61,856 nucleotides of DNA from Phycisphaerales bacterium (lineage in GTDB: Bacteria; Planctomycetota; Phycisphaerae; WQYP01), in the NCBI GenBank assembly GCA_027451365.1, contig DAIDJN010000039.1, forward strand, positions 1 through 61,856, read 5' to 3'. Position 1 is the first letter of the stretch. Every line of letters starts with the position of its first letter. The notes under the pieces are model-generated. The model was not told where the DNA came from and did no database searches. It was given only the letters and a program-made list of their open reading frames with translations. Position numbers and translations under genes: made by a program. Positions 5,201 to 21,456 of the stretch are shown piece by piece.

Positions 5201-5989
5201 ATGCAGTCTCTCTACAATAAAAGCTGGGATCAACTCAAATCTGACCGCAGTCAATTCAAGGAAGATATTGATCAAGAAGCGACCCCAATATTAGTGTTTG
5301 GCCAATTCAAAAGCGCCAGGATCGTGACAGTTGGACTGAATCCCTCCGAGCGAGAATTCCGTGAGTCAAGTAAGCCGTTAAAAGGCGACAAACAGCGTTT
5401 CCTGCATTGGCCAAGAGATGGGCAACTTACGAGCGACCTGCGGAAAATGGCGTTCGAGCGAATGACTAACTATTTTACACGTGGACAGGCCTATTCGCGT
5501 TGGTTTGACAGGTATTCGCCGCTGCTTTGCAGCCTGTCAGCGTGTTACAAGTCAGGCACCGCTTGCCACACGGACGTGATTTCCCCCTTCGCCACCGCGC
5601 GAGGCATTAATAGATGCAAAGGCTCTAACGTAAGGTACCTCAAAAAGTTTGGCCGCCCGATGTGGCTCGAGGTCATGAAAAAAATACCTCACGCGGAATT
5701 GGTTTTCGGATGCGGCTCGGTGCGGCATTCGTTTGAGGAGCTATTGCATATACCGACCTGGCGGAAGCCCTCGGCCGAATTAGGTAAGAAGGTCAGCGAG
5801 AAAAAAATCAAACCGCCGTTTCTAGTCTACGCCAAGGCCAAGTTACCCGGAACTGAGCGTTCCATTATCATTTTCTGCTGGAAGCCGAATAGGTATGGCT
5901 CTCCATTATGTTGGCTAAGCGATAAGGACTCAGAAAATCTAGGAAATATCGTTCGTGACACAGCGAGGCGTGAAGGTTTCCTTAAATAA
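5201..5989 (+). CDS. Hypothetical protein, possible uracil-DNA-glycosylase-like fold
   Basis: GGAGG RBS. N-terminal PILVFG...IVTVGLNPS..EF resembles UDG-superfamily motif A. Lys/Arg-rich, and codon usage looks unlike the neighbours. Confidence 0.5.
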   Translation: MQSLYNKSWDQLKSDRSQFKEDIDQEATPILVFGQFKSARIVTVGLNPSEREFRESSKPLKGDKQRFLHWPRDGQLTSDLRKMAFERMTNYFTRGQAYSRWFDRYSPLLCSLSACYKSGTACHTDVISPFATARGINRCKGSNVRYLKKFGRPMWLEVMKKIPHAELVFGCGSVRHSFEELLHIPTWRKPSAELGKKVSEKKIKPPFLVYAKAKLPGTERSIIIFCWKPNRYGSPLCWLSDKDSENLGNIVRDTARREGFLK

Positions 5990-9535: not shown

Positions 9536-10663
9536 TCACCGACTGGCCTTGTAGTTTAATACAGGTGTGAGCCGCCGCACGATGCAGACCAGGTCCCGTT
9601 GGGCCCGCATGACCCGCTGGATATTTTTGTATGCACCGGGTGCTTCGGCGCGCAGGGCGTGGGTTTGGGCACGGTCGAAATAGATGCCTTCCATTTCCCG
9701 GCACAGCCTGTTTCCTGAAATATGGCGCATGGCCTGGCCGCGGCTTAATTTACGTCCCGCGCCGTGTGAGCTGGAATTCAGGGCATTTGAATTGCCGCGA
9801 CCAATGACGTGATAGCTTTCTGTGCCCATTGACCCAGGAATAAGTCCCGGCCGGCCTGAGTCCGCACGGTTCGCTCCTTTGCGATGCACCCACAACTGTC
9901 CGGATTCGAGTGTTTCCAATGACAGATGGTTGTGGTCGCAATCAACAAGGGAATCTGCCTCCGGGGTCATGCCGAAAATCCGGTCCAGAATTGCGGCAAG
10001 TGCGGTCATGATCGCGCTGCGGTTGGCGGCGGCGTAACGCCTGCACCATTGCGCATCGGCAAGATAGGCCTGTCCCTGATCGGTGGCGGCGTCCATTGCA
10101 GCAAGGCCGGAGGGCATGATTCGGCAATGCTGGTTGTGAAAATCGAAGACCGCCTGCCCAATTCCGCGCGATCCGCTGTGCACCATCGCCCACAGGCGGC
10201 GGTCTTCATCTATCTGCAATTCCAGAAAATGATTGCCTGAGCCCAATGTGCCAAGCTGAAGAACGCCATCATCGCGAAGAATTGCGCGGAGGCGAGAATC
10301 AACGAAAGTGGCGGGCGGGATGTCCGCTATTGCGGGCGGATGATCGCCGCGGCGGTGACGGTTGTATGGAATATCGTGCCGAATGGCCGCATAAACAGCG
10401 GGCAGATGGACGAGCATATCCGGCGTGAGTTCGGCCGAAAATCGGCATGCAGTAATTCCGCAGCCAATATCGCCTCCGACGGCACCGGGATAGACGAGTT
10501 GCCTGGTTCCTATCACCATTCCGACGCAGAAATTGCCTGCCGGATTGACGTCCGGCATGACGGCAAGATGCCGGACGTCGTCGGCGTTCACCCAGATGCG
10601 AATGCGCGACCGCACCAGCGGGTCAAGCGGATCGCATAGCCATTGATGCATGGGCGCGGTCAT
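9536..10663 (-). CDS. rtcB: RtcB-family RNA ligase (short form, 375 aa)
   Basis: VGGDIGCG, LGTLGSGNHFLE, VHSGSRG, HNH, HRKGA, IPGSMG, SSSHGAGR and EAPGAYK motifs. Confidence 0.93.
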   Translation of the reverse strand: MTAPMHQWLCDPLDPLVRSRIRIWVNADDVRHLAVMPDVNPAGNFCVGMVIGTRQLVYPGAVGGDIGCGITACRFSAELTPDMLVHLPAVYAAIRHDIPYNRHRRGDHPPAIADIPPATFVDSRLRAILRDDGVLQLGTLGSGNHFLELQIDEDRRLWAMVHSGSRGIGQAVFDFHNQHCRIMPSGLAAMDAATDQGQAYLADAQWCRRYAAANRSAIMTALAAILDRIFGMTPEADSLVDCDHNHLSLETLESGQLWVHRKGANRADSGRPGLIPGSMGTESYHVIGRGNSNALNSSSHGAGRKLSRGQAMRHISGNRLCREMEGIYFDRAQTHALRAEAPGAYKNIQRVMRAQRDLVCIVRRLTPVLNYKASR

Positions 10664-11067
10664 GATTGCACCTCGTGCATGGGCAGCACGACAAAGTCTA
10701 TTTCCGGCGCCTTCTTGCGGCAGATATCTGCCGCAATGGCGGCTCGCAACAGGCCTTTGACCTGTTCGAGCCGTTGATAGACCAACGCGAAATCGGGTGG
10801 GGAATCGCCAGGCTTAAGCCAGAGCGTGATAAGCAGATGGTGCGCATTAGGCGCGGGAGCGACCGATGCGACGATAAGGCCTTGCAATACCGGATCGCGG
10901 CAGTCACCCGCCAATGTCAGGCTGATAATGCGGAAGGCCTGTTTGCACAATTGGGCCGTTTTGTAATCAGGCTTATACGAAAAGCCGTCCATAGGGTCCG
11001 AACGTTGAGACCGGTTGTGGCGGCGCGCAGATTCTGCGCGTCGTTCACGTGAATGTGAATTCGTCAC
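10660..11067 (-). CDS. Ribosome-binding factor A-like protein (divergent RbfA paralogue)
   Basis: KTAQLCKQ...RDPVLQGLIVASVAPAPNAHHLLI...LEQVKGLLRAAIAADICRKKAPEIDF follows the RbfA pattern (DPrl..v.V....D......L....G.lR..ia..i..r..PeL.F). GTG start after GGAGA. ATGA overlap with rtcB. Confidence 0.75.
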   Translation of the reverse strand: MTNSHSRERRAESARRHNRSQRSDPMDGFSYKPDYKTAQLCKQAFRIISLTLAGDCRDPVLQGLIVASVAPAPNAHHLLITLWLKPGDSPPDFALVYQRLEQVKGLLRAAIAADICRKKAPEIDFVVLPMHEVQS

Positions 11068-11251
11068 AATTATTCTCCGACGGCGCAGCATTAACGCTGC
11101 GCCTGGGTTAATAAAAATCAATCCTGGTTAAGCTGCAAAATCATGGGCTTCGGTTGCGCGAAGACGGCGGCGACGATACGGCTCGCGATTCAGGCCACAA
11201 AAAAAATGGCTGTGCGATGCGCACGCAATCTACTGCGATGCCAAGCCCGAG

Positions 11252-11284: not shown

Positions 11285-11327
11285 AAATCACCTATGTGCC
11301 GCCAAAGAAGCAGCTCCTGTTTGCATC

Positions 11328-11355
11328 AATATAATGGAGGATGAGGCAATGTCAA
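11328..11355 (-). promoter_or_regulatory. Sigma70-type promoter for the leader/rbfA-like/rtcB unit
   Basis: TTGACA-16 nt-TATATT on the minus strand. Confidence 0.6.
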
Positions 11356-20898: not shown

Positions 20899-21456
20899 GT
20901 GCTGCTGTTGAAGAAACATCTTGTAGAGTTGGTCATTGCCGGCAAAAAACGTCAGACAATCCGCTTCTGGTCCCGGCCTATTGTGAGCGTTGGGCAAATC
21001 AGTTTTGCACCCGGACTAGGTAAAATATTGATTACAAAAGTGGAGCAGTTAGCCGAGATTGAGCAATTGACCCAGACTGACGCCTTGGCGGATGGTTTTG
21101 CCAGCCGGGCCGAACTTCTGGATGAACTAAAACGGCTTTACCCCACCGTTCCGCCCGGCAAGCGGCTTTATCGCGTGGTATTTGAATGGCCAGTGCCAAA
21201 CGCTGTGCCAGAGTCCGGTTCCGCGCCCCCTGTTTGCTCCCTGCCCACTGTTCCGGATGCTGGTCCGTCCGTCGTCATACGCCGGGGCCATTCGCCACGG
21301 CCCGGCGGCAAACCGATCAGGCCGGTGGCCGCGACGTCGGGGAAAGTCACTCTGACCAATGGCATGAACGCGAGTCAACGGACAGAATTGCGGAATTTCA
21401 TACAAAATCGCGCCGCGGCGGCGGGCTGGCTCGGCAATCGCCGATCCTTTCCCTGA
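20899..21456 (+). CDS. ASCH-domain protein with a Pro-rich C-terminal extension
   Basis: LVIAGKKRQTIR (GxKxxxxR) and LTQTDALADGF motifs. Confidence 0.75.
   Translation: MLLLKKHLVELVIAGKKRQTIRFWSRPIVSVGQISFAPGLGKILITKVEQLAEIEQLTQTDALADGFASRAELLDELKRLYPTVPPGKRLYRVVFEWPVPNAVPESGSAPPVCSLPTVPDAGPSVVIRRGHSPRPGGKPIRPVAATSGKVTLTNGMNASQRTELRNFIQNRAAAAGWLGNRRSFP

Follow-up and report, generated by a model that had tools for sequence, protein, structure and literature searches.

The window analyzed here is a stretch of 61,856 nucleotides from a Phycisphaerales bacterium (assembly GCA_027451365.1, contig DAIDJN010000039.1). Its reverse strand carries a gene for a small RbfA-like protein and, overlapping the end of this gene, a gene for the RNA ligase RtcB. 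The features of this unit are compiled in Table 1. The ATGA overlap between the two genes reported in the preliminary description is present, and we infer from it that they are translationally coupled. Since both flanking genes, which encode a DUF4139 protein and a metallo-hydrolase, are located on the opposite strand, the unit stands alone. The GTG is the best candidate start of the small ORF because it is preceded by GGAGA. The leader ORF and the promoter-like site were missed in the first reading of this DNA and are added by the present analysis.

Table 1. Features of the paralogue-rtcB unit (positions refer to the window)
Feature	Position	Strand	Characteristics
RtcB RNA ligase, 375 aa	9536..10663	-	Catalytic D65, C68, N144, H145, H162, H244, H300; distinct RbfA-linked clade
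ATGA overlap, paralogue stop/RtcB start	10660..10663	-	4-nt overlap in 24/36 linked pairs, any overlap in 31/36
RbfA paralogue, 135 aa, GTG start at 11067	10660..11067	-	Predicted KH type II core; K-x-x-x-L-C-x-Q, PAP[DN], and RK[RK]xP motifs; basic N-terminal extension; no C-terminal helix
Shine-Dalgarno GGAGA of paralogue	11074..11078	-	Seven bases 5' of GTG 11067
Perfect 8-bp hairpin	11082..11103	-	Just 5' of the ribosome-binding site of the paralogue
Leader ORF, 10 codons, MTTILSISIA, TAA	11252..11284	-	Shine-Dalgarno-led
AGGTGAT, Shine-Dalgarno of leader ORF	11287..11293	-	7-nt complement of the genome's own 16S 3' end GGATCACCTCCTTT
sigma70-like site TTGACA-16-TATATT	11328..11355	-	11/12 consensus match, points into leader; consensus match only

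As had been noted, rtcA, rtcR, prfH, and archease genes are missing near the pair, and prfH was absent from the window as a whole, but the genome contains a related locus elsewhere. On contig C73 (G000:C73:21309-28047, corresponding to L002 with its flanks), genes for an rtcR-like regulator, a TROVE-like protein, a 503-aa RtcB, and rtcA lie together, the names rtcR, TROVE, and rtcA being our own reading of the translations. This 503-aa RtcB is very divergent (26% identity to E. coli RtcB1) and sits on a long branch. Searches of the genome, which is 93% complete, revealed no archease and no protein matching the prfH model TIGR03072 over its cut-off. With a GC content of 58%, the pair differs little from the genome (55%), and its composition thus gives no sign of a recent transfer; searches of plasmids and phages returned no match to the RbfA-like protein.

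The RbfA-like protein and the RtcB ligase

The small protein scored below the cut-offs of the RbfA models (Pfam RBFA PF02033, 20.3 bits against 34.7; TIGR00082, 16 against 51.15). However, all seven PDB matches of a family profile built from 149 members were RbfA chains (best E value, 1e-5). The AlphaFold model (pLDDT, 90.9) has the KH type II fold, with the order alpha1-beta1-beta2-alpha2/3-beta3. Among 48,161 chains, its best structural match was RbfA of T. thermophilus (Z score, 12.2; rmsd, 1.8; 88 residues aligned), the top five matches were all RbfA or RBFA, and the six Foldseek matches at E <= 0.001 were RbfA without exception. The earlier assignment to an RbfA-like protein with a KH/RbfA fold is thus borne out. 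In a quick tree computed without bootstrap from 82 proteins, the 31 canonical RbfAs and the paralogues were placed on opposite sides of one branch (support, 95). A canonical rbfA was present in all 61 phylum genomes inspected, six of which carry the pair; in this genome it is located behind nusA-infB (G000:C30:47934-48449), whereas the flanks of the gene in the window differ, in agreement with the initial view that the latter lies outside the usual operon context. Fold, tree split, and the separate canonical gene, taken together, identify the predicted small protein as a true RbfA paralogue.

The paralogue family comprises 1,189 clusters (50% identity) at E <= 0.001, a count that may take in some canonical RbfA, and 291 clusters at 1e-10, and its database label is simply ribosome-binding factor A. 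Cys17, in helix 1, is conserved in 99% of 149 sequences. In the family alignment, many paralogues (for example, L013, L016, L017, and L021) have a basic N-terminal extension with an LC[AG]..L..DDG.DPR motif, which is absent from the window protein. Minimal paralogues of 97 to 99 aa, consisting of the KH core only, are found without an adjacent rtcB at L032, L034, L038, L040, and L056, and in one family they are convergent with a cysteine desulfurase and SUF genes.

The ligase belongs to the RtcB family (Pfam PF01139, 273.3 bits against a cut-off of 27). The metal-binding and nucleophile residues reported for Pyrococcus horikoshii RtcB, namely, Asp95, Cys98, His203, His234, His329, and His404 (PMC10630183), correspond to D65, C68, H145, H162, H244, and H300. 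All six are shared without exception by the 27 clade members compared, in line with the initial statement that the catalytic motifs are intact. The window enzyme is expected to seal 2',3'-cyclic phosphate to 5'-OH ends in a GTP/Mn-dependent manner. Its residue 40 is an asparagine at the position of the PDxH histidine found in at least 90% of the clade.

The RtcB2 models recognized the window ligase at scores below both cut-offs (TIGR03073, 135.5 against 271.8 bits; PRK09588, 168 against 407 bits). In a quick tree of 77 RtcB proteins, with SH-aLRT support and without bootstrap, the 35 RtcBs linked to a paralogue and one exception formed a single clade (SH-aLRT, 97). This clade adjoins the group closest to E. 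coli RtcB1 and is far from the two RtcB2 sequences, so that the window ligase falls into a clade of its own, which is neither the RtcB2 nor the RtcB1 group. At L102 (5001-7738), the linked RtcB reads frameshifted and is directly followed by a second RtcB of 463 aa and of another type.

Near-obligate dependence of an RtcB clade on the paralogue

Among 60 near relatives, the paralogue was present in six, in each case with rtcB directly behind it, and one of the six paralogue genes was in two pieces. At L011 (1495-1816), the paralogue gene lies in two frames and the RtcB also reads broken, through either decay or sequencing error. In a sample of 401 phylum genomes, 36 strong matches to the paralogue were detected in 35 other genomes. 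Twenty of these had rtcB directly downstream, one had a SpoU methylase gene in between, and 15 were without rtcB within 1.5 kb. About 120 weak matches to the paralogue profile were taken as canonical rbfA, of which four were looked at, so that further intermediates may be among them. The inserted gene, at L048 (7521-8447), encodes a 308-aa SpoU-family rRNA methylase with two matched stretches and separates the paralogue from the RtcB that branches deepest in the clade.

The reverse search of the 401 genomes with an RtcB profile yielded 25 matches above 420 bits, followed by a gap down to 352 bits. All 25 had a paralogue upstream; 22 had been part of the model, and the three new ones carry weakly scoring paralogues. 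This brings the phylum sample to 24 of 39 paralogues linked to rtcB and 15 without an RtcB beside them (hereafter, orphans). The orphans sit on at least 10 separate tree branches and have the same motifs as the linked proteins, and 14 of the orphan-carrying genomes contain no RtcB of the linked clade at all.

The pair was not confined to this phylum. Of the best 80 of 599 RtcB loci from all bacteria, seven belonged to the clade, including members from Acidobacteriota, Polyangiaceae, Myxococcaceae, and three Planctomycetota. Six of these seven were linked to a paralogue, against none of the other 73 RtcBs. With the next-best RtcBs of the phylum sample (0 of 5), the count for RtcBs outside the clade is 0 of 78, whereas 31 of 32 clade members have the paralogue. 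For the exception, L095, no paralogue was found in its genome. A metagenome scan added four loci with three paralogues, of which one was linked and one too short to tell. The pair thus occurs in planctomycetes, myxobacteria, and acidobacteria, and the dependence of the RtcB clade on the paralogue is near-obligate. The link is one-sided, given that 15 of 39 paralogues have no RtcB. The paralogue is patchy, occurring in about one genome in 10, whereas canonical rbfA is universal. Clustering of the ORFs of 53 loci revealed no third conserved gene, and no toxin, prfH, or other ribosome factor recurred in these neighborhoods.

The pairwise distances of the RtcBs and of their paralogues correlate (r = 0.75; 0 of 5,000 permutations), a value that is inflated by kinship. 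Five paralogues with canonical-like motifs (L049, L084, L085, L087, and L096) were placed between canonical RbfA and the main clade in the quick tree, and that of L096 passes the Pfam cut-off. Their RtcBs form a subclade of their own (support, 96). On the basis of these intermediates and their RtcB subclade, the link between paralogue and RtcB appears to be older than the divergence of the paralogue. The simplest history would be that an rbfA duplicate was captured by the ligase and then remodelled.

Leader ORF and upstream region

We counted Shine-Dalgarno-led ORFs of 6 to 35 codons ahead of the paralogue, one locus having too little upstream DNA. Such leaders were present at 22 of 36 linked loci, as compared to 3.95 expected from shuffles. 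For comparison, the opposite strand had such an ORF at 7 of 36 loci, other rtcB genes were preceded by one in 15 of 72 cases, and orphans in 3 of 15; a strong leader ORF was thus absent from 12 of the 15 orphan loci. The leaders lie 70 to 230 nt ahead of the paralogue and share no conserved run of amino acids. Between L007 and L009, the changed codons of the leader are silent in four cases (stop included) and non-silent in one. The enrichment over the shuffled expectation suggests a ribosome-sensing control.

Leader-peptide attenuation of translation-stress genes is known from the erm/cat and whiB7 types. The window unit resembles these systems in its strong Shine-Dalgarno sequence, its short ORF, and a downstream ribosome-binding site that may pair. 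It differs in that its leader has no Rfam match and that no fixed pairing was seen across the family, and in that it precedes a predicted RNA-repair pair and not a resistance gene. In the fold of the full leader, codons 2 to 6 are predicted to pair weakly (z = -0.86) with GGA and GUG at the start of the paralogue, a pairing that is absent from the shorter fold. The cost of opening the binding site of the paralogue was above that of shuffles in 16 of 23 leaders. A fixed pairing of the leader start with the ribosome-binding site across the family found no support in the swapped-partner control (5,021 of 20,000), and the region after the stop gave a weak signal (476 of 20,000; 1,282 after thinning). 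The complementary motifs GAGC[CT] (12 of 23 leaders) and GCTC[CT] (14 of 23) are enriched, but they were picked by eye, and both are absent from the window. The leaders of 15 loci had no real Rfam match, and no conserved RNA structure was seen in the leaders. A terminator-like element at 11224-11212 is doubtful, since its U-run falls into the loop of another predicted hairpin. The putative regulatory switch is accordingly less certain than the leader ORF itself.

Ribosome contacts, related systems, and possible functions

RbfA of E. coli and S. aureus is reported to grip the 3' tail of 16S rRNA by means of the DPR loop, the AxG kink, and Phe78 (PMC8177701, PMC9917171), and the beta1/beta2 and alpha3/beta3 loops of the E. 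coli protein act as a wedge at h28, so that the h44/45 linker stays unfolded (PMC8177701). We compared these positions in 31 canonical proteins and 31 linked paralogues of the main clade; the 5 intermediates and 15 orphans were counted apart. The paralogue shares with canonical RbfA the KH type II fold and topology, the aspartate of the alpha1/beta1 loop, and an invariant proline before beta3. In contrast, the DPR arginine, present in 29 of 31 canonical proteins, is not among the three commonest residues of the linked paralogues. The AxG alanine dropped from 29 of 31 to 11 of 31, the AxG glycine from 26 of 31 to 19 of 31, and the Phe78 site holds F or Y in 23 of 31 canonical proteins against F in 3 of 31 linked ones. 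The window paralogue has DPV, VKG, and L at the three positions. The canonical RbfA of this genome also deviates, with AQK for AxG and R at the Phe78 site, so that these two sites are not decisive. In addition, the C-terminal helix is missing from the linked paralogues, a basic N-terminal extension is present, and the mean core charge is +1.8, compared to +6.7 in canonical proteins and -1.1 in orphans.

The best-conserved parts of the paralogue are the two wedge loops, with P47 (30/31), R93 (31/31), K/R94 (30/31), R/K95 (29/31), and P97 (31/31). The near-invariant residues K12, L16, C17, Q19, R84, and R93 are rare or absent in canonical RbfA of the same phylum. The residue changes fit a paralogue that docks at the 30S neck without needing an intact 16S tail, and they would also fit a paralogue that has left the ribosome. 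In E. coli, RbfA is released by RsgA. No RsgA match over the cut-off was obtained in the 93%-complete genome.

The closest parallel is the RtcB2-PrfH operon of E. coli ATCC 25922, which likewise consists of two genes, one for an RtcB of a dedicated clade and one for a translation-factor copy that has diverged, and whose RtcB2 seals cut 16S rRNA in free 30S subunits according to PMC9304027. However, the window ligase is below the RtcB2 cut-offs and far from RtcB2 in the tree, its partner is a predicted RbfA copy and not a release-factor homologue, prfH is found neither in the window nor over the cut-off in the genome, and the window unit is preceded by a leader ORF. With the rtcR-regulated rtcBA operon (E. 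coli RtcB1), the unit shares the expected ligase chemistry, and the RtcB1-like proteins are the nearest characterized branch (34% identity to E. coli RtcB1). It differs by its separate clade and by having no adjacent rtcA or rtcR, the locus of the type rtcR-TROVE-rtcB-rtcA being the separate one on C73. Unlike canonical rbfA, finally, the paralogue is below the family cut-offs, outside a nusA-infB-rbfA operon, and patchy. By sequence and gene context, the unit thus matches neither RtcB2-PrfH nor rtcBA, and its small protein does not match canonical RbfA. The preliminary description had not recognized the pairing of an RbfA paralogue with RtcB as described, and none of the literature matches listed describes it; this scope included neither the main survey of RtcB neighborhoods (Burroughs and Aravind, 2016) nor the supplement of PMC9304027, and either might mention the pairing. 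According to Tian et al. (2022; PMC9304027), five of eight RtcB clusters are without an assigned substrate. The linked RtcB clade carries a built-in pointer to its own substrate.

Considering these features, we propose that the leader ORF, the RbfA copy, and the dedicated RtcB clade may form a repair kit that is induced by stress and acts on free 30S subunits, with the RbfA copy bound at the neck and decoding region and the ligase closing cuts in 16S rRNA. We judge the chances that this proposal is right to be about even. A similar role, with the paralogue holding or marking damaged 30S subunits for this RtcB, was suggested in the preliminary description; the co-occurrence, the fold, the separate canonical rbfA, and the clade position of the RtcB came out in its favor, whereas the degenerate 16S 3'-tail contacts, the fall in core charge, and the orphans speak against it. 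When ribosomes move slowly or stall on the leader ORF, the ribosome-binding site of the paralogue would become free, and owing to the ATGA coupling the two proteins would be made in matched amounts. Via its beta1/beta2 and alpha3/beta3 loops, the paralogue would dock in the mRNA exit channel, with less need for an intact 16S 3' tail, and would hold the h44/h45-linker region open, as RbfA does in maturation. The 2',3'-cyclic-phosphate and 5'-OH ends of a break within or close to h44-h45, at ribotoxin cut sites, would then be sealed by RtcB. One such toxin, CdiA, cuts 16S rRNA at 1493/1494. Colicin E3 also cuts at 1493/1494, and ribosomes with this cut become arrested at the start codon (PMC13166195), whereas MazF cuts at 1500, which RtcB1 can reverse (PMC5416887).

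Repair of 30S subunits by the pair is favored by the dependence of the RtcB clade on the paralogue, the single clade, the co-divergence, and the apparent age of the link, as well as by an RbfA fold whose conserved loops are those that wedge at h28 in E. coli RbfA. Further support comes from RtcB2, which according to PMC9304027 repairs free 30S subunits and not 70S ribosomes alone, from the start-codon arrest of E3-cut ribosomes, which the leader ORF could sense (PMC13166195), and from the SpoU rRNA methylase gene inserted into the pair at L048. Several observations argue against it, namely, the degenerate 16S 3'-tail contacts, the fall in charge from +6.7 to +1.8, and the loss of the C-terminal helix; the 15 of 39 paralogues without RtcB and the L095 RtcB without a paralogue; the lack of a recurrent toxin, prfH, or ribosome factor in the neighborhood; and a pairing of leader start and binding site that is unsupported, with GAGC[CT]/GCTC[CT] missing in the window. 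Moreover, the clade adjoins the RtcB1-like group and not RtcB2, and E. coli RtcB1 prefers tRNA over cut 30S subunits (PMC9304027).

This last position in the tree, together with the persistence of the paralogue without RtcB on at least 10 branches with unchanged motifs and the Shine-Dalgarno-led leader kept in 3 of 15 orphans, speaks for two stress factors that are co-regulated but independent. The paralogue would be a chaperone for 30S re-maturation or a holding factor, and RtcB a general tRNA/rRNA ligase, sharing a ribosome-sensing leader and acting on different breaks. We consider this possible but rather doubtful, as the presence of the paralogue beside nearly every RtcB of the clade (31 of 32), the gene overlap (31 of 36), and the co-divergence make for a tighter link than co-regulation alone needs. 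Somewhat less probable is a repurposing of the RbfA fold as a substrate adaptor or activator of RtcB on non-ribosomal RNA (tRNA halves, tmRNA, or mRNA), in a role like that of archease or further partners of other RtcBs; archease was not found in this 93%-complete genome. The lost 16S 3'-tail contacts and net charge and the new near-invariant residues K12, L16, C17, Q19, R84, and R93 would agree with such an adaptor, but the orphans keep the same residues without a clade RtcB, which points to a partner other than RtcB, for example, the ribosome, and the conserved loops are those that face the 30S neck. It is very improbable that the main task of the paralogue is to regulate, by binding RNA, its own leader or the translation of rtcB, since, for all its KH-type RNA-binding fold and the structured leader upstream, the leaders have no conserved RNA structure or Rfam family, and 12 of 15 orphans keep the protein motifs without a strong leader ORF.

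If the pair does repair 30S subunits, ribosome repair would have evolved twice, as separate RtcB branches recruited different translation factors (PrfH and RbfA), and the decoding center would be assembled and repaired with a shared tool. A more specific version of 30S repair by the pair can be put forward only tentatively. It would represent a third, independently evolved ribosome-repair route, in which the leader senses ribosomes stuck at the start codon and turns on the RbfA copy, which recognizes a broken h44-h45 instead of the intact 16S 3' tail and presents the break to its own RtcB. If true, this would be the first known use of an assembly factor to select damaged subunits for ligation of their RNA.

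Two other ORFs on the forward strand of the window deserve mention. That at 5201-5989 encodes a lysine-rich protein of 262 aa without a Pfam or NCBIfam match, and its VGLNP motif recalls, in our reading, uracil-DNA glycosylase-like proteins. The ORF at 20899-21456 (185 aa) is located upstream of a GmhA-like gene, and its N-terminal part presumably resembles an ASCH-type RNA-binding domain.
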